Source of the DNA: a virus
Lineage: Duplodnaviria > Heunggongvirae > Uroviricota > Caudoviricetes
IMG/VR virus record: IMGVR_UViG_2778261643_000001
Coordinates: 1 to 5,820 of that record
Direction: 5' to 3' (one strand)
DNA: 5,820 nt
The notes below the pieces were generated by a model. It saw nothing but the letters and a program-made list of their open reading frames with translations. It searched no databases and was not told the origin of the DNA. Below, one piece after another: positions 1 through 5,820 of the stretch (positions are counted from its first letter, which is position 1; the number at the start of each line of letters is the position of its first letter). The translations under genes were made by a program, and so were the position numbers.

Positions 1-392
<392 letters not shown>

Positions 393-393
393 G

Positions 394-416
394 AAAAGCC
401 CGGCGTTCGGGCTTTT
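394..416. terminator. Bidirectional rho-independent terminator between the convergent plus-strand gene and the minus-strand operon
   Basis: Stem GCCCG (398-402) / CGGGC (408-412) with a 5-nt loop, flanked by AAAA (394-397) and TTTT (413-416). Either strand therefore reads a GC stem followed by a U-run. It sits between the stop at 390-392 and the stop of the minus-strand gene at 439-441. Confidence 0.7.
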
Positions 417-438
417 CTGTTATGACGGGTTCAATTTT

Positions 439-1413
439 TTATCCGTTACCGCGCGACGGTTTCTGCGTGATAAACGTCTCAAGCATCTTTTCCGCAATTG
501 CCGACCAGGTGTGACACTGGACCTTTTCAGCATTTTTCACGCGATCAACGCGAGCAATAACCTCATCCCAATCAATCCGCGACTTGATAACCATATGGTT
601 CACCAAAGCCAGGCGATCTGGCGGAAGGCAATCGGGAGGCGTTAATACCAACGCCCCGCACATTGCCGCCTCAAGTACAGTTAATCCAAGGCTTTCGGGA
701 TGCGTAACGATAAACACGTCACTCTTACGCAATTCAGCTGCAAATTCGGTTGCTGGTACCGGCGTCCGTCTGTATGGGGTTACCGATATATTCCCCGGAT
801 CAATGGTAATCAATCCGTCATCGGTCAACGTTCTGGCCTCATACGGAACGGTCAGACGCTGAAGGTTCATAAGGATACTTAAGGAGTGATCAAACCCACT
901 AACATCAAATGCAGCGTGGTCTACAAAAATACGCAGAACATCGTCTGTTTTGGTTTCCAGATGGAACAGATCCTGATTCGCTGCCCATCCAACATGTTTG
1001 TTAAAGCGATTATGACGCTCTAACCTGCCTGGATTATCCAGGTACCGCCAGGTATCATCGCGGACAGTAAAAGTAATATCGACTGGTGCCGAATCCAGCA
1101 TAGAACCGTCGTATACCTGGGCTACCCATCCAGTGAATCGACGACGCAGTTGCACGCCTATTTCCCTGGGCACCGTAGTAAAATACCGCAATCCTGGCGC
1201 TAAAATGGCTTTCGCAGAACACGAGGTCGCAGCGGTCAACACAGCTTCAACATAATCCTCCGGGCTTTCGACGCCGGGGGAATATGGACGATGGTATTGC
1301 AATGTTACCCCTGCCTCACTAAAGGCGCAGGCCAGGTTGTAAGCCCACATTTCCGTATATGTTTTCACATCACTGATAGCTTCAAATTTTCGCCCAATGA
1401 TCAGGATGTTCAT
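439..1413 (-). CDS. dbn: GT-B fold (GT1/GT4-like) glycosyltransferase-like protein, about 324 aa; alternative upstream start at 1437 overlapping the helicase stop
   Basis: Long minus-strand ORF. The ATG at 1413-1411 is preceded by GAGGAAAAG with about 7-8 nt spacing (strong RBS); the ORF-track start at 1437 forms TAATG with the helicase stop. N-terminus MNILIIGRK and C-terminal region SDVFIVTHPESLGLTVLEAAMCGALVLTPPD resemble the conserved E-x7-E region of retaining GT4 glycosyltransferases. The symbol is from my recollection that the gene downstream of ban in P1 is called dbn; it has not been verified by search. Confidence 0.75.
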   Translation of the reverse strand: MNILIIGRKFEAISDVKTYTEMWAYNLACAFSEAGVTLQYHRPYSPGVESPEDYVEAVLTAATSCSAKAILAPGLRYFTTVPREIGVQLRRRFTGWVAQVYDGSMLDSAPVDITFTVRDDTWRYLDNPGRLERHNRFNKHVGWAANQDLFHLETKTDDVLRIFVDHAAFDVSGFDHSLSILMNLQRLTVPYEARTLTDDGLITIDPGNISVTPYRRTPVPATEFAAELRKSDVFIVTHPESLGLTVLEAAMCGALVLTPPDCLPPDRLALVNHMVIKSRIDWDEVIARVDRVKNAEKVQCHTWSAIAEKMLETFITQKPSRGNG

Positions 1414-1436
1414 CGGCTTTTCCTCATTCCATTGCA

Positions 1437-2801
1437 TTAATAATCCTCTTGCCAGTCAGCACCAGCATAGTTATCAAACCGTGAGTATTGGCCGTTAAAA
1501 GCCAATCTCACCGTGCCAATTGGGCCATTTCGTTGCTTTCCGATAATTACCTCGGCAATGCCCTTCATTTCGCTATCCGGGTGATAAACTTCGTCGCGAT
1601 ACAGAAACATGATCAGGTCTGCGTCCTGCTCAATTGCTCCTGATTCACGTAAATCTGAATTTACCGGTCGTTTGTCCGCACGCTGTTCAAGCGATCGATT
1701 AAGTTGTGACAATGCCACCACCGGTACTTGTAATTCCTTCGCCAACGCCTTCAGTGAGCGAGAAATCTCGGCAATTTCCAGCGTTCGGTTATCTTGCAGC
1801 TCGGGGACGCGCATAAGTTGCAGGTAGTCGATCATAATCATGCTCAAACCACCATTTTCTTTATAAACACGACGAGCGCGGGAACGAAGCTCTGTAGGTG
1901 TCAGGGCGCTTGAGTCATCAATAAAAATATTCTGCTTGTCCAACAGAATCCCCATTGCGCCAGAAACCCGCGCCCAATCCTCGTCGTTAAGTTGCCCTGT
2001 TCGAATACGAGTCTGATCAACGCGTGCAAGAGAAGCCAGTGAGCGCATCATCAGCTGGTGGCTCGGCATCTCAAGGCTAAAAACCAATACGGGCTTATCG
2101 TTACGGACTGCGGCATTTTCGACGAGATTCATCGCAAACGTAGTCTTCCCCATCGATGGGCGGGCGGCGACAATAATGAGATCGGACGCCTGAAGTCCTG
2201 CCGTCTTCTTATTGAGATCGGTAAATCCGGTATCAAGCCCCGTTACACCATCATGCGGTCGCTGAAACAACTCTTCTATGCGAGATACCGTTGCATCGAG
2301 AATGCTGGCGATATCTTTTGGACCACTACCGCTCTTTTGTCGTTTTTCAGCTATTTCAAAAACGCGGCGCTCGGCCATATCCAGCAATTCATTGCTGCCC
2401 CTGCCATCCTGCGCATATCCAGCTTCGGCTATTTCATTTGCGACGGAAATCATTTCACGAACAACCGCGCGTTCACGAACGATATCCGCATAAGCACAAA
2501 TATTTGCCGCGCTGGGCGTGTTCTTTGACATCTCCGCAAGGTACGCAAAACCACCGGCGCGTTCTAATTTACCGTTCTGTTCAAGTGCTTCAGCAAGTGT
2601 TATCAAATCAATCGGTTTGCCATGACTTAATAACCTCTCCATCTCACTGAAAATTTCACGATGAGCACTGGTAAAAAAATCATCAGCAACTATACGATCT
2701 GCAACTTCATCCCAGCGGCAGTTATCAAGCATTAAGCCACCAAGTACAGCTTGTTCTGCACTAAGGGAATTTGGCATGGATTCAAGAGGGGATGCAGACA
2801 T
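1437..2801 (-). CDS. ban: DnaB-family replicative DNA helicase, phage P1 Ban-like; likely start at ATG 2801, with an in-frame GTG at 2807
   Basis: The translation aligns by eye along its whole length with E. coli DnaB: SAEQAVLGGLMLDN, AARPSMGKTTFAMNLVENAA (Walker A), LIMIDYLQLM, VPVVALSQLNRSLEQRADKRPVNSDLRESGAIEQDADLIMFLYRDEVYH, IIGKQRNGPIGTVRL. The N-terminus is shorter than host DnaB, as I recall for P1 Ban. GGAG lies 5 nt upstream of the ATG at 2801. The context of three tRNAs, a lipoprotein and a coupled downstream gene argues for a phage paralogue, not chromosomal dnaB. Confidence 0.93.
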   Translation of the reverse strand: MSASPLESMPNSLSAEQAVLGGLMLDNCRWDEVADRIVADDFFTSAHREIFSEMERLLSHGKPIDLITLAEALEQNGKLERAGGFAYLAEMSKNTPSAANICAYADIVRERAVVREMISVANEIAEAGYAQDGRGSNELLDMAERRVFEIAEKRQKSGSGPKDIASILDATVSRIEELFQRPHDGVTGLDTGFTDLNKKTAGLQASDLIIVAARPSMGKTTFAMNLVENAAVRNDKPVLVFSLEMPSHQLMMRSLASLARVDQTRIRTGQLNDEDWARVSGAMGILLDKQNIFIDDSSALTPTELRSRARRVYKENGGLSMIMIDYLQLMRVPELQDNRTLEIAEISRSLKALAKELQVPVVALSQLNRSLEQRADKRPVNSDLRESGAIEQDADLIMFLYRDEVYHPDSEMKGIAEVIIGKQRNGPIGTVRLAFNGQYSRFDNYAGADWQEDY

Positions 2802-3086
2802 TAGCACTCCACCCAGGCGTGCTGAATGTCAGATATAATCGGCATACTCAAATCACTCCTAACGATATGAGTCATCACCAGAAAATCAGGATTAATGCGC
2901 CGGACTCTTCCCGGCTGTCACACCGAATCGCCAGGATGGTGAGTCCCTGAATCCGCTATCCCTCCAACGGTGACTTGCACATTCCGGCTACCTGGTTTGT
3001 TGCCTGAGCTAGGGGAAAAGGCAATCCCTTTAACGTCACCAGACCGCTAACGACGCATGTGCCAGACGCCGTGTTACAACCAAATA

Positions 3087-3162
3087 TGGTGGCCCCTACC
3101 GGACTTGAACCGGTGACCGTGCGATTATGAGTCGCCAGCTCTAACCACTGAGCTAAAGGGCC
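3087..3162 (-). tRNA. tRNA-Ile2-like, anticodon CAU (presumed lysidine-modified, AUA-decoding); tRNA-Met not excluded
   Basis: Minus-strand sequence GGCCCTT-TA-GCTC-AGTGGTTA-GAGC-T-GGCGA-CTCATAA-TCGCA-CGGTC-ACCGG-TTCAAGT-CCGGT-AGGGGCC-A-CCA folds as a 76-nt cloverleaf with encoded CCA. The acceptor and D arms closely resemble E. coli ileX as I recall it. P1 is reported to carry a tRNA-Ile (tentatively trnI). Confidence 0.88.
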
Positions 3163-3189
3163 GGATTACTGCCAATTTTGCTTACGCTT

Positions 3190-4017
3190 TTATTTCACCG
3201 GAACAAACGGAACAGCGGCATTACTGGTCATATACTGCGGTAATGTACCGTTCCATTTGTTGATCGCTTCCAACTCCATAACACCGGGGTTCTGGCGCAG
3301 AGCTTCACCACGTAAACGAATGGCATCAGCTTCGGCCTGGGCTTTTGTGCGAATAGCATCAGCCTGTCCGGCAGCTTCCGCGCGCAGCATGTTGGCCTCT
3401 GCTTCACGTTGTTTGACCTCTTGCTCGCGTTGCAGGGTTTTTTGGTTTGCCGTGACTTTGGCGTTAATACTGTCAATAACTGTTGGCGGGTATTCTGGCT
3501 TACCTACATAAGAGAGGCTCATCACCTGAATGCCGATTGGCGTCATTTCTTCCTGAATGTCTTTAAGGGCTGCATCAAGCAATTCAGATTTGCCACCGTC
3601 GATAAATTTGTCGGTGGTCATTTTGCTGGCTAACCGGTTCAGAGCATCTGCAACCTTCTGGCGTAGATCGGTATCAGTAATATCATCTACACCTTTGCGA
3701 TAGGTCTGAAATACCGTTGTGACTTTTGCTGGATCAACCTTGTAGGCTACGCCGATGTGGTAACCAATGGTTGTTCCGTCGCTCATCTGGAAGCTGAACG
3801 GCTCATCGTATGTCTTCATTTGCTTAAAGGTCGGGAAGATATAAACTTCAGTATTCAAGCCTGTCCAGTAGCGACCAACGCCAACTACTTCACCGATACC
3901 TTTATCATCCCCCAGCTTATTTACTTTGATCCCTACGTTACCTGGCTCTACCCGATCGCATCCGGTCAGGCATAAAGAACCCAAAATAATCGCTGCACTA
4001 ATCAACGTTTTTTTCAT
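3190..4017 (-). CDS. SPFH/Band-7 (stomatin/prohibitin-like) domain lipoprotein with C-terminal coiled-coil, 275 aa
   Basis: N-terminal signal peptide with lipobox (MKKTLISAAIILGSLCLTGC, Cys at the +1 position). The central region reads like an SPFH domain and the C-terminus is an Ala/Glu/Arg/Gln-rich predicted coiled-coil (QREQEVKQREAEANMLRAEAAGQADAIRTKAQAEADAIRLRGEALRQ). RBS AGGA lies about 9 nt before the ATG. It may correspond to the P1 'putative lipoprotein' (plp), but that name is a tentative recollection. Confidence 0.85.
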   Translation of the reverse strand: MKKTLISAAIILGSLCLTGCDRVEPGNVGIKVNKLGDDKGIGEVVGVGRYWTGLNTEVYIFPTFKQMKTYDEPFSFQMSDGTTIGYHIGVAYKVDPAKVTTVFQTYRKGVDDITDTDLRQKVADALNRLASKMTTDKFIDGGKSELLDAALKDIQEEMTPIGIQVMSLSYVGKPEYPPTVIDSINAKVTANQKTLQREQEVKQREAEANMLRAEAAGQADAIRTKAQAEADAIRLRGEALRQNPGVMELEAINKWNGTLPQYMTSNAAVPFVPVK

Positions 4018-4234
4018 TAATTAATTTCCTGGTTTTTTCACGAAAAAAGACTACTGCGAAAGCCGGGTAAATGAGCGCAAGAAGGACTCCCAACAATACA
4101 AGTATTGTGCTGTTAGATGAGATCATATTTGGCAAAAGCCAAACATACAGAACCAGTGACACAATCAAACAGAGGACGGCATAAATATATAACCGCACCC
4201 ATAGCGTTCGACATTTGTTCGGATTGTTCTGCAT
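3998..4234 (-). CDS. Small two-TM inner-membrane protein (78 aa) overlapping the SPFH lipoprotein start by 20 nt; likely co-translated partner
   Basis: Two hydrophobic segments (LYIYAVLCLIVSLVLYVWLL and STILVLLGVLLALIYPAFAVVFF) with a basic C-terminal tail. GGAG lies about 9 nt upstream of the ATG at 4234. The 3' end overlaps the downstream lipoprotein gene. SPFH proteins are commonly encoded with a small membrane partner (NfeD-type), although this protein is too short to carry an NfeD OB-fold. Confidence 0.6.
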   Translation of the reverse strand: MQNNPNKCRTLWVRLYIYAVLCLIVSLVLYVWLLPNMISSNSTILVLLGVLLALIYPAFAVVFFREKTRKLINEKNVD

Positions 4235-4393
4235 CCTCTCACTCCATTATTTAACGAATAAAAAAGCTGCGGTGCCGGGTGCCTCCCGGTGTCCTTTGGC
4301 TGGTTATCCACCGTGGACGGGGAAACAAGGAGAAATGAATGGACTGATATAACCATTTCCCCGCGTGCGCTTAGCCGCATTCACCGCAACGGA

Positions 4394-4453
4394 AAGAGCA
4401 TTCTTGGTGGACCTGTAGATTGGGATATGAACCCGTTACAGGAGAATGCTCTT
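4394..4453. repeat. Nested-hairpin repeat element, copy A: 11-bp outer inverted repeat enclosing the conserved core GTAGATTGGGATATGAACCCGTTACA (4415-4440)
   Basis: Outer arms AAGAGCATTCT (4394-4404) and AGAATGCTCTT (4443-4453) are exact reverse complements. Inside, CCTGTA (4412-4417) pairs with TACAGG (4437-4442), and GGG (4422-4424) pairs with CCC (4432-4434) around a 7-nt loop. The core is 24/26 identical to 5095-5120. Confidence 0.6.
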
Positions 4454-4516
4454 ACCTGTTGCGTACTCCGTTTCATGGAGTTAACGGCGGACTAACCATC
4501 CGCCCCAAATTTATAA

Positions 4517-4930
4517 TTAGCTGCTTGCTGACGGATAGTTTTTGGTTAATTGGACCAAGCGAGCATCAAGAGCTTTTCGATAATCAATCATGCTTCCGAG
4601 CTGAATTTCCAAATCCAACTGCTTGCACTGGTCTATAGTGAGGAATTTATCTGTTCCAATGAATCGAACAAGCTTATTTATGCGCTGGCATAGCTGAGCA
4701 CGTTCGATAATCATTCGCTTGTGGTATTCCTCCAAGCCGTCAATTTTGCCCAACGGAGCTGCTATTTCATTAAATTCACGAAGTGGTATTTTGAGTTCGT
4801 TACCGAACACATCTACAACATCAATTTCAGATGCATCTTCTTTCGAAACTTTATCGACCTGATAACTGGTGCTAACCACTAAAGAAATAACAAACTGCTC
4901 TTTCTGCATAATTACCGTTCTCGCACTCAT
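4517..4930 (-). CDS. Hypothetical protein, 137 aa (130 aa if started at the ATG at 4909); no recognisable family
   Basis: Uninterrupted ORF in a stretch that looks somewhat lower in GC than the helicase region by hand count of a 100-nt sample of each. Neither candidate ATG has a convincing Shine-Dalgarno. It is bracketed by the two near-identical repeat cores at 4415-4440 and 5095-5120. I do not recognise any motif in the protein. Confidence 0.5.
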   Translation of the reverse strand: MSARTVIMQKEQFVISLVVSTSYQVDKVSKEDASEIDVVDVFGNELKIPLREFNEIAAPLGKIDGLEEYHKRMIIERAQLCQRINKLVRFIGTDKFLTIDQCKQLDLEIQLGSMIDYRKALDARLVQLTKNYPSASS

Positions 4931-5047
4931 GGGTGACAGTTTCTAAATAAATTGTGATGGTCGGTGCTGAACTCCGACACAGGGTTGTAGCAAGCCCCGC
5001 AAAGCGCGCACTACTGTAGTTGCGGCACATCAGCCTGTGCATTCACC

Positions 5048-5139
5048 ACAACGTTGAGAACACTGATTGTCACGCTGCAACGCAACATTTATTCGTAGAT
5101 TGGGATATGACCCCGTTACGCCAGTGTTCTCAACGTTGT
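5048..5139. repeat. Nested-hairpin repeat element, copy B: perfect 18-bp inverted repeat (5048-5065 / 5122-5139) enclosing a 56-nt spacer with core GTAGATTGGGATATGACCCCGTTACG (5095-5120)
   Basis: ACAACGTTGAGAACACTG and CAGTGTTCTCAACGTTGT are exact reverse complements. Inside, CGTA (5094-5097) pairs with TACG (5117-5120). Compared with copy A the closing pair changes T:A to C:G, a compensatory change, while the 22-nt interior stays almost identical. Confidence 0.6.
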
Positions 5140-5285
5140 AGTGCCGGTTACGGTTCCGGCCAGGCCTCTTCCTCAACGGGGTGTTCTCCATACGGACTAC
5201 CGTTTATTGGTCGTTCCTGCGGTTTATGTTGTGAAGCCAGATGCTTATCTTCTGGTTGCTTCTAAGAGCTGCACTTCATCACAAC

Positions 5286-5359
5286 GGTAAGGGTACTTCG
5301 TAGGGATTCGAACCCTCTGCCAAGCACGGCGATCTCCGACGTCGCAAAATACCCTTACC
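5286..5359 (-). pseudogene. tRNA-like pseudo-element: a canonical T-arm (GGGTTCGAATCCC) inside a perfect 10-bp terminal inverted repeat (GGTAAGGGTA / TACCCTTACC); not a foldable canonical tRNA
   Basis: The minus strand reads GGTAAGGGTA...GCAGAGGGTTCGAATCCCTACGAAGTACCCTTACC. The 10-bp terminal helix and the T-arm are clear, but I cannot place a D-arm or anticodon arm at canonical distances, and there is no encoded CCA. It lies 8 nt downstream (in transcription order) of tRNA-Thr. Confidence 0.4.
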
Positions 5360-5367
5360 TGTTGTGT

Positions 5368-5443
5368 TGGTGCCGGTTAACGGACTCGAACCGCTGACAT
5401 CCTGCTTACAAGGCAGGCGCTCTACCAACTGAGCTAAACCGGC
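5368..5443 (-). tRNA. tRNA-Thr, anticodon UGU
   Basis: Minus-strand sequence GCCGGTT-TA-GCTC-AGTTGGTA-GAGC-G-CCTGC-CTTGTAA-GCAGG-ATGTC-AGCGG-TTCGAGT-CCGTT-AACCGGC-A-CCA folds as a 76-nt cloverleaf with a 7-bp acceptor stem and encoded CCA. P1 is reported to carry a tRNA-Thr. Confidence 0.9.
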
Positions 5444-5445
5444 AT

Positions 5446-5521
5446 TGGCGATGGTGGATGGATTTGAACCATCGACCCGTTGATTAACAGTCAACCGCTC
5501 TAACCGCTGAGCTACACCATC
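5446..5521 (-). tRNA. tRNA-Asn, anticodon GUU; sequence unlike host tRNA-Asn
   Basis: Minus-strand sequence GATGGTG-TA-GCTC-AGCGGTTA-GAGC-G-GTTGA-CTGTTAA-TCAAC-GGGTC-GATGG-TTCAAAT-CCATC-CACCATC-G-CCA folds as a 76-nt cloverleaf with a perfect acceptor stem and anticodon stem. Only 2 nt separate it from tRNA-Thr. P1 is reported to carry a tRNA-Asn. Confidence 0.85.
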
Positions 5522-5650
5522 ACTTGCCGGGTACGTCTCCGGCGAGGGCTTCCACCTCCGTATGCTTTTCGGCGCACCGCGCCCTGGCTGCAATTCGGTA
5601 ACAGGGGATGCATAACCCTGGCTTCCAGCGTGATTAGCGCCTTCAGCATG

Positions 5651-5665
5651 ACGGGATATACCCGT
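5651..5665. other. Short palindromic hairpin ACGGG-ATATA-CCCGT, related to the GGGATAT..CCCGT core of the repeat family
   Basis: 5-bp stem ACGGG/CCCGT with an ATATA loop. It shares GGGATAT and CCCGT with the cores at 4421-4436 and 5101-5116. It lies about 130 bp upstream (in transcription order) of tRNA-Asn. Confidence 0.4.
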
Positions 5666-5682
5666 AGCAAGACGTTATTCCT

Positions 5683-5703
5683 AAATTGCTAAAAGCAATT
5701 GCT
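5683..5703. promoter_or_regulatory. Candidate repressor operator (P1 C1-type?) with palindrome ATTGCT-AAA-AGCAAT and an overlapping third ATTGCT; probably overlaps the promoter of the tRNA-ban operon
   Basis: Minus-strand reading ATTGCTTTTAGCAATTT matches about 13/17 positions of the P1 C1 operator consensus as I recall it (ATTGCTCTAATAAATTT). It sits in the about 300-bp non-coding region upstream of the first minus-strand gene. No comparable site lies directly upstream of the helicase gene (2802-3086). The -35 and -10 elements could not be placed confidently. Confidence 0.3.
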
Positions 5704-5820
5704 GTTACGCCGAATGAAAAAGGACGTAACAGGTAAGGACGCTGACCAAAAAGATGGCCCTGGATTTGCCCCTATATTTCCAGACATCTGTTATCACTTA
5801 ACCCATTACAGGCCCGCTGC

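Follow-up and report, generated by a model that had tools for sequence, protein, structure and literature searches.

To our knowledge, every SPFH (Band-7) protein whose structure has been solved forms a membrane-attached ring or cage, and the function of bacterial SPFH proteins is still largely open. SPFH genes have been listed in phages since 2006 without a function, their presence has been taken in the literature as a hint of lysogeny, and what phage SPFH proteins do is still described as unclear in papers of 2021 and 2026. We analyzed a stretch of 5,820 nucleotides (nt) of viral DNA (positions 1 to 5,820 of the IMG/VR record IMGVR_UViG_2778261643_000001, Caudoviricetes; hereafter, the window) in which a sequence-only reading had picked out a small protein with two transmembrane (TM) segments, encoded by an open reading frame (ORF) that overlaps the start of an ORF for an SPFH lipoprotein, and had taken the pair to be uncharacterised, as the literature bears out. 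Both ORFs and their overlap lie on the minus strand exactly as that reading had placed them, with the following features:

3190-4017, minus strand: gene for the 275-amino-acid (aa) SPFH/Band-7 lipoprotein, ATG start (Pfam, PHROG, AlphaFold2, Foldseek)
3958-4017, minus strand: signal peptide and lipobox, residues 1-20 (L-T-G-C20), followed by Asp21-Arg22 (translation)
3394-3954, minus strand: SPFH domain, residues 22-208 by Pfam
3292-3486, minus strand: single long helix, residues 178-242, the counterpart of the coiled-coil wall helix of SPFH cages (AlphaFold2)
3238-3258, minus strand: C-terminal K-W-N-G-x-L-P motif, residues 254-260 (W255 and G257 invariant, P260 near-invariant)
3998-4234, minus strand: gene for the 78-aa two-TM hairpin protein, ATG start, predicted N-in/C-in (ORF, PHROG 1130)
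3998-4017, minus strand: 20-nt overlap of the hairpin and SPFH ORFs, with an A7 run (T7 on the plus strand, 4008-4014)

We lean towards the view that the two proteins make up a two-subunit, periplasm-facing inner-membrane SPFH scaffold that is produced early in lytic growth. Among described systems, HflK/HflC resemble the large protein in their SPFH domain followed by a long helix, their N-terminal inner-membrane anchor and their periplasmic domain, but are anchored by a TM helix rather than by a lipid and assemble from two SPFH paralogues into a hetero-oligomer that lacks a small hairpin partner. The SPFH-NfeD pairs, such as E. coli QmcA-YbbJ (PDB 8z5g), are likewise two-gene operons for an SPFH scaffold and a small cage-associated membrane protein; unlike in these pairs, the partner here is devoid of an NfeD/OB-fold domain and consists of just a two-TM hairpin with a four-residue turn. 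The pair corresponds to direct members of PHROG 200 and PHROG 1130, the annotations of which give neither a function nor a link between the two families.

The assignment of the large protein to the SPFH fold, as read from the sequence alone, was borne out by profile, model and structure comparison. Its ORF is preceded by a Shine-Dalgarno-like AGGA 9 nt upstream of the ATG at 4017, and its product matched Pfam Band_7/SPFH (PF01145) over residues 22-208 (E=9.7e-31, 107.6 bits against a cut-off of 23.6) as well as PHROG 200 'lipoprotein' (E=2.9e-113). An AlphaFold2 monomer model built with 65 homologues (predicted local distance difference test score, pLDDT, 83) comprised an alpha/beta SPFH domain (residues 19-175), a 65-residue helix (178-242), a short helix and a disordered tail; the long C-terminal coiled-coil noticed earlier is thus this one helix. 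Foldseek aligned the model over its full length (~260-300 columns) and with probability 1.0 to the human prohibitin complex (E=3e-14), HflC (4e-14), HflK (7e-14) and erlin, with weaker matches to stomatin, flotillin, QmcA (E=7e-8) and the vault shoulder. By sequence, the best match among solved structures in the Protein Data Bank (PDB) was HflK (E=2e-4), prohibitin-2 being the only other. The protein missed the HflK and HflC equivalog cut-offs of NCBIfam by a wide interval (23.3 versus 159.4 bits for TIGR01933 and 24.7 versus 134.4 bits for TIGR01932), and orthology to HflK/HflC was rejected on this score. The large protein has an SPFH fold and falls in a subfamily of its own, for which an exhaustive search gave 2901 cluster representatives at E<=1e-3, 218 of them at E<=1e-30, and whose members are routinely mislabelled 'serine protease' or 'transposase'.

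The N-terminus of the protein points to the membrane in which it resides. Its lipobox, L17-T18-G19-C20, fits the pattern [LVI][ASTVI][GAS]C, and the Cys proved invariant in a 61-sequence family alignment as well as in fused homologues (see below), G48, W255 and G257 being the other invariant positions of the family alignments; the lipobox recognized in the sequence-only reading was thus upheld. A Cys just before the SPFH core was present in 117 of 137 full-length family representatives, while those of the remaining ~20 whose start is visible begin with a plain hydrophobic N-terminal helix. Asp-Arg followed the lipobox Cys at positions +2 and +3 in all 94 close homologues (94/94) in which the motif was found. 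In E. coli, Asp at +2 is the Lol-avoidance signal that retains lipoproteins in the inner membrane, and retention there rather than sorting to the outer membrane is therefore predicted. Prohibitin, HflC/HflK and erlin hold their SPFH domain on the non-cytoplasmic side, and we consider an inner-membrane anchor with a periplasmic SPFH domain highly likely; the SPFH domain of QmcA, in contrast, is cytoplasmic. The same signal weakens the earlier comparison with T5 Llp and Cor, which are also phage-encoded lipoproteins. Llp and Cor are small, sit in the outer membrane and block the FhuA receptor, whereas the present protein is a 275-aa SPFH scaffold with a signal for inner-membrane retention and an inner-membrane partner. 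Since the protein has both the long helix and the conserved C-terminal KWxGxLP motif, and solved SPFH proteins are rings or cages, a periplasm-facing ring is proposed; by this analogy, assembly into a ring or cage is likely.

The 78-aa protein is a conserved companion of the large one. GGAGTGAGAGG, a Shine-Dalgarno-like sequence, directly precedes its ATG at 4234, and its product matched PHROG 1130 'membrane protein' (E=6.4e-16). With three basic residues at the N-terminus, five at the C-terminus and none in the loop, the positive-inside rule predicts an N-in/C-in hairpin, the short turn of which (L34-P35-N-M-I-S39-S-N-S-T) would be periplasmic. The turn carries a motif, L-L-P-N-M-I-S-S in the window protein and P-x-[LMF]-[ILVM]-S-[AS] in general form. 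In a 40-sequence partner alignment (24% mean identity), P35 and S39 were invariant and G49 was conserved in >90% of the sequences; the turn motif belonged to the detection rule for 24 of these 40 sequences. NfeD, which the earlier reading had suggested looking for, was absent: neither the 78-aa protein (Pfam, E<=0.1) nor the 40 partner homologues (E<=0.01) matched it, and no other Pfam family matched any of these proteins either. An NfeD identity of the partner, which consists of two helices and short tails, was thus ruled out.

To survey the pairing, 80 diverse environmental viral loci were fetched, of which 51 were analysable. A partner was found automatically in 24 of the 51; the automatic detector missed others due to non-ATG starts, motif variants and intervening genes, and 19 of the 20 loci checked by eye among the 27 missed have a partner, either adjoining the SPFH gene or up to 460 nt upstream. 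Separate upstream partner ORFs also occur in P2-like phage P88 (gp11, with a 4-nt overlap with the SPFH gene), in a Salmonella Enc34-like prophage, in an Alcaligenes prophage and in the virulent Ruegeria phage DSS3_MAL1; in the Stx phage phiP27, the hairpin ORF lies directly upstream of the SPFH gene and is unannotated. Stop/start overlaps of the partner and SPFH genes range from 1 to 20 nt, suggesting translational coupling. The pair recurs in hundreds of elements and in distant phages; it is real, and far beyond what chance would produce.

Gene fusions tie the two proteins further together. Seventeen of 137 representatives (~12%) have an N-terminal extension of 60-125 residues in which the hairpin is fused in frame, the fused homologues reading as a two-TM hairpin, a basic linker, a signal-like helix with the Cys, and then the SPFH domain. 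One P1-type variant (P0001) with one A fewer in the A7 run encodes a 347-aa in-frame fusion, and further natural variants give the small protein other C-terminal ends at the overlap. A model of the P0001 fusion built with 21 fused homologues (pLDDT 85) displayed helices at residues 5-38 and 43-68 separated by a four-residue turn, a third helix at 74-89 and then the SPFH domain. A programmed frameshift at the A7 run was also considered and set aside; a -1 shift meets a stop after two codons, and only the loss of one base fuses the frames, which was taken as mutation. With the hairpin fused in frame, the protein must be anchored in the inner membrane and its SPFH domain must lie in the periplasm, which agrees both with Asp+2 and with the orientation predicted for the hairpin. 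Very probably, then, the hairpin and SPFH proteins are subunits of one complex in a ratio of about 1:1, and the recurrent pairing, the fusions and the conserved turn motif together substantiate the earlier suggestion that the small two-TM protein belongs with the SPFH protein.

The element that carries the pair is a P1-like phage-plasmid, consistent with the temperate phage-plasmid presumed from the sequence: the window region shares 99.8% identity with Punavirus P1 records, and a 1.1-kb cassette containing the pair is a 100% match to the 100-kb E. coli P1-like plasmid NZ_CP122822. On the minus strand, the order of genes is tRNA-Asn, tRNA-Thr, a 137-aa ORF, the hairpin and SPFH pair, a tRNA with a CAU anticodon, a DnaB-type helicase (P1 ban) and a 332-aa ORF (P1 dbn). 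Homology to classical P1 covers dbn, ban and the tRNA, ends 9 nt upstream of the tRNA and returns at window position 4268; window 3172-4267 therefore replaces tciA-tciB-tciC. The features concerned are:

3172-4267, minus strand: exchangeable cassette in place of the tciA-tciB-tciC genes of classical P1 (BLAST against P1, junction alignment)
4268-4470, minus strand: conserved structured leader, common to tciABC-type P1, with the upstream recombination junction at its 3' end
3087-3162, minus strand: tRNA with a CAU anticodon, the downstream cassette boundary, followed by ban and dbn (ARAGORN, PGAP)

An allele survey of P1-like IMG/VR contigs, anchored on the conserved leader, returned the SPFH cassette in ~24 contigs, tciABC in ~20, a divergent tciA in one (L131) and a rearranged locus in one (L128). 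The slot in the P1 ban operon is thus essentially bi-allelic, with either the SPFH pair or tciABC; the existence of more than two main alleles was considered and rejected, the divergent tciA and the rearranged contig being all that was seen beyond these two. In the divergent contig, the first ~500 nt past the leader hold a third allele, in which the usual tciB and tciC accompany a divergent TerB-like TciA. The tciABC genes encode a TerB-like protein and two tiny hydrophobic peptides; they resemble the SPFH pair in occupying the same ban-operon slot between the same leader and tRNA and in being membrane-associated, non-essential and uncharacterised, but bear no sequence or fold relation to it, TciA having a cytoplasmic TerB-type domain (PMC9603915). 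They represent one of eight variable regions of P1-like phage-plasmids and are missing from nearly half of them (PMC9603915), and both tciABC and ban are non-essential in P1 (PMC10695390). The SPFH cassette was present in 189 PLSDB plasmids, nearly all of them non-mobilizable and ~90-100 kb in size. Of 5426 complete E. coli genomes, 192 contained the whole cassette; a further ~230 carried a copy of the SPFH gene at ~86% identity, for a total of 423 with any match, and 266 of the matched places were chromosomal.

The position of the cassette bears directly on when the pair may be expressed. While no C1 operator was found within the window at <=3 mismatches, a perfect one, ATTGCTCTAATAAATTT, overlapping an inverted copy with two mismatches, lies right after the dmt stop codon in three records (classical P1, an SPFH-type P1 record and the plasmid identical to the window). 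It is located ~360 nt past the window end (equivalent window coordinates ~6181-6208), ~690 nt upstream of tRNA-Asn and ~2 kb upstream of the pair, is the only operator in 10 kb, and overlaps a promoter, TTGCTC-N17-TAATAT; we take this operator/promoter to be Op72 of the ban operon. All genes from the operator to dbn are co-oriented, and no sigma-70-like site with at least 9/12 matches was found between the operator and the pair. The ban gene itself is controlled by C1 and induced in the lytic cycle (PMC4713147). Placed between ban and the C1 operator/promoter, without an intervening strong promoter, the pair most probably belongs to the C1-repressed early ban operon, judging from this arrangement, and expression of the pair early in the lytic cycle is quite likely. 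A palindrome at 5684-5700, AATTGCTTTTAGCAATT, was also considered as a C1 operator; it is a perfect palindrome that looks like the operator's left half but differs from the 17-mer at 4-5 positions, and was rejected. No intrinsic terminator was called by the scanner between the leader and the hairpin ORF, where a hairpin lies 9 nt from a T-run.

This arrangement speaks against the role first suggested for the pair, namely that of a superinfection-exclusion, membrane-integrity or abortive-infection module which a prophage would express to protect the lysogen. Such a module would be expected to be expressed in the lysogen, often from its own promoter, and to be rare in virulent phages, and the evidence is opposite on all three: the pair lies inside an operon repressed by C1, no separate promoter for it was detected, and homologues are widespread in strictly virulent phages (see below), which have no lysogen to protect. 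The genes sit within early or replication operons rather than beside the repressor or at late-region moron sites, and are kept in hosts that are very distant from each other, whereas exclusion proteins typically evolve fast. Nor is a known anti-phage defence system involved, as PADLOC-DB v2 had no match for the SPFH protein and returned only noise for the hairpin (12 bits, E=0.023); literature searches turned up no relevant paper connecting SPFH proteins to anti-phage defence or superinfection exclusion. On the other hand, the pair is an accessory cassette, exchangeable and placed where P1-like elements are known to vary, its products are at the membrane, and it is common in prophages, as the 423 E. 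coli genomes with a match illustrate. The other allele, tciABC, is moreover TerB-like, and a connection between ter operons and phage inhibition has been described (PMC9603915). A Pasteurella prophage SPFH protein reported to act as a virulence factor in the lysogen (see below) also leaves the idea some small weight. All considered, we regard a lysogen-protecting role as very unlikely.

The distribution of homologues extends these observations well beyond P1. By tblastn, homologues were found in 392 of 50,697 phage records, among them strictly virulent ones, namely N4-like, rV5-like (PVP-SE1, 4MG), FelixO1-like, LUZ24-like and phiCbK-like phages, Lak megaphages and a crAss-like phage. The ten commonest genera in the organism names of the phage matches are all Gram-negative, and the family thus appears, from these genera, restricted to diderm hosts. 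Where the neighbourhood was inspected, the pair lies in the early operon of P88, between cox and the replication gene A; in the leftward arm of phiP27, next to int and xis; between the genes for a single-stranded DNA-binding protein and DNA polymerase A in the Salmonella prophage; downstream of and co-oriented with a cI-like repressor gene in the Alcaligenes prophage; and after DnaE, RNase T and GcrA in a metagenomic phage. In the virulent Pseudomonas phage TL, the homologue lies in the left-end early region. One fused family member occupies a chromosomal housekeeping neighbourhood. The spread over virulent phages of very different diderm hosts suggests a generic target, either the inner membrane or a universal inner-membrane machine.

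A more specific version of the cage model, and the most specific and most interesting of the alternatives, is that the phage cage mimics HflK/C, capturing or modulating host FtsH or another inner-membrane machine. It would thereby alter the turnover of host and phage proteins early and serve as a host-takeover or a lysis-lysogeny device. HflK/C are the closest characterised relatives of the large protein by sequence and among its top three by structure, the SPFH domain of the large protein is predicted to lie on the same side of the membrane as theirs, and a very broad host range fits a universal target. Early-operon positions, including the PL-like arm of lambdoid prophages, are in keeping with such a role, lambda encoding the FtsH inhibitor cIII in its PL arm. 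The same link has been speculated upon by others (PMC8540360). Weighing against it are the 23-25 bits scored against family cut-offs of 134-159, the fact that HflK/C needs two SPFH paralogues where there is here one and a hairpin, and the fact that no FtsH-sensitive switch is known for P1 or for the virulent carriers. We thus hold HflK/C mimicry to be unlikely. Broader still, the pair could represent a widespread and hitherto unrecognised two-component host-takeover device of diderm phages, whose cage captures a universal inner-membrane machine such as FtsH; if true, this device would act early, reprogramming membrane proteostasis or permeability, and would be swappable with tciABC in P1, although we deem it distinctly unlikely.

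The same early context and predicted periplasm-facing location at the inner membrane would also suit a function in lytic-cycle exclusion or lysis timing, for which early T4 membrane proteins provide a model: a periplasmic dome could block the injection of a second genome or regulate holin and endolysin. The occurrence of the family in virulent phages and its restriction to diderm hosts agree with this explanation, which rests purely on context; linkage to lysis genes was seen in none of the loci inspected, and PHROG and Pfam scans revealed no relation to known exclusion proteins. It appears to us quite unlikely in this specific form.

Returning to the two-subunit inner-membrane scaffold that we favor, the following course of events may be envisioned. 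The large protein would be exported, lipid-modified at Cys20 and kept in the inner membrane through the Asp at +2, so that its SPFH domain faces the periplasm, on the same side as that of HflK/C. The 65-residue helix and the conserved C-terminal motif would drive the formation of a ring or cage fencing off a patch of membrane, while the 78-aa hairpin would be embedded in the membrane under the SPFH ring at a ratio of about 1:1, contacting it via the periplasmic turn P-x-h-h-S. With the C1-repressed ban-operon promoter driving its transcription, the pair would be silent in the lysogen and produced early after induction or infection. It would be an accessory that the phage can do without and that the TerB-type tciABC cassette can replace; its dispensability is suggested by the bi-allelic state of the locus and by P1 not requiring tciABC or ban. 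The role itself may be to condition or shield the infected diderm cell's inner membrane and envelope while lytic growth proceeds, possibly by holding an inner-membrane component in the fenced domain, or by conferring resistance to envelope damage or to the entry of a second phage. Guessed as it is from context, this specific physiological role is tentative and, taken alone, doubtful.

Several observations weigh against this scaffold and its early expression. With regard to topology, Ser or Thr occupies position +2 in most distant homologues, and the +2 sorting rule holds for Enterobacterales only and differs elsewhere. With regard to the partner, gp11 of phage TL has one TM segment and lacks the turn motif, and no partner was seen in one environmental locus (L148). 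With regard to expression, weak internal promoter-like sites (8/12 matches) are present, the leader preceding the cassette is strongly structured (RNA fold z=-4.7), and the junction of the SPFH allele adds a T-run after it; it is possible that the structured leader and the T-run attenuate read-through. Finally, Pasteurella multocida PM0222, a prophage-encoded protein likened to HflK/C, was located to outer membrane vesicles (OMVs) and implicated in virulence (PMC9872710), which, if it belonged to the same family, would entail expression in the lysogen and a site other than the inner membrane.

PM0222 is the only phage SPFH protein with experimental data that we found, and it suggests a further explanation, that of a surface or vesicle lipoprotein of lysogenic conversion acting as a virulence or immunomodulatory factor in the animal host. 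Like the window protein, it is a prophage-encoded SPFH protein, but it differs in being reported as an OMV-borne virulence factor, and its homology to the present family is putative. In OMVs, it activates Toll-like receptors (TLR) 1/2 and adds to virulence (PMC9872710). While TLR1/2 recognises lipoproteins, TLR2 agonism is possible for any lipoprotein. The family, moreover, occurs in environmental, marine and virulent phages, a conserved inner-membrane partner is required, and Asp+2 predicts retention in the inner membrane, making a surface role extremely unlikely for the window protein.

Regardless of the precise role, the literature yielded no description of the obligate hairpin partner and its fusions, of the non-NfeD nature of this partner, of the early-operon placement, or of the clean allelic exchange with tciABC. 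The partner gene usually goes unannotated, as illustrated by the identical plasmid, in which PGAP did not annotate the hairpin ORF, and by the SPFH-type P1 record MH422554, from which it is omitted too. What was an anonymous ORF here becomes a testable system, consisting of an SPFH protein with a conserved and sometimes fused hairpin subunit in what appears to be an early lytic gene set. P1-like elements further offer two natural near-isogenic alleles, the SPFH pair and tciABC, in a genetically tractable phage.

Other features of the window and of related loci were noted in the course of this work. In a virulent phage with a T4-type RNA ligase (L225, 2639-7855; L227, 2633-7861), genes for a MotA/ExbB-like protein and an HtrA-like protease lie beside the pair, and a gene for a periplasmic-binding-protein-like product splits the hairpin gene from the SPFH gene; the neighbourhood is possibly a phage envelope gene cluster. 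The leader at 4268-4388 (minus strand) gave a sub-threshold Rfam match to the gammaproteobacterial small RNA STnc100 (37.8 bits against a gathering threshold of 47, E=1e-5), the match falling within the conserved leader that stops exactly at the cassette junction. A ~90-nt repeat occurs in two to three copies (4377-4464, 5039-5143 and, partially, 5272-5367) between the tRNA genes and ORFs of the operon; each copy has a long hairpin and a T-loop-like motif, GGTTCATATCCC, and the repeats could be RNA-processing sites or degenerate tRNA-like elements. The CAU tRNA at 3087-3162 was called Met by ARAGORN and, as the identical gene, tRNA-Ile by PGAP, presumably lysidine-modified. Between this tRNA and the ban start codon lie ~280 nt of non-coding DNA (2808-3086) in which no promoter-like site was found. 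The 137-aa ORF (4517-4930, minus strand) lies within a second insertion (4491-4948) that is missing from both classical P1 and MH422554, which have ~58 nt at this place; its product is related to Pfam crAss001_48 (E=3e-15) and to PHROG 15270. Lastly, the dbn product (439-1437) showed weak matches to glycosyltransferase group 1 families, the best of them (E=1.5e-5) just below the Pfam cut-off.

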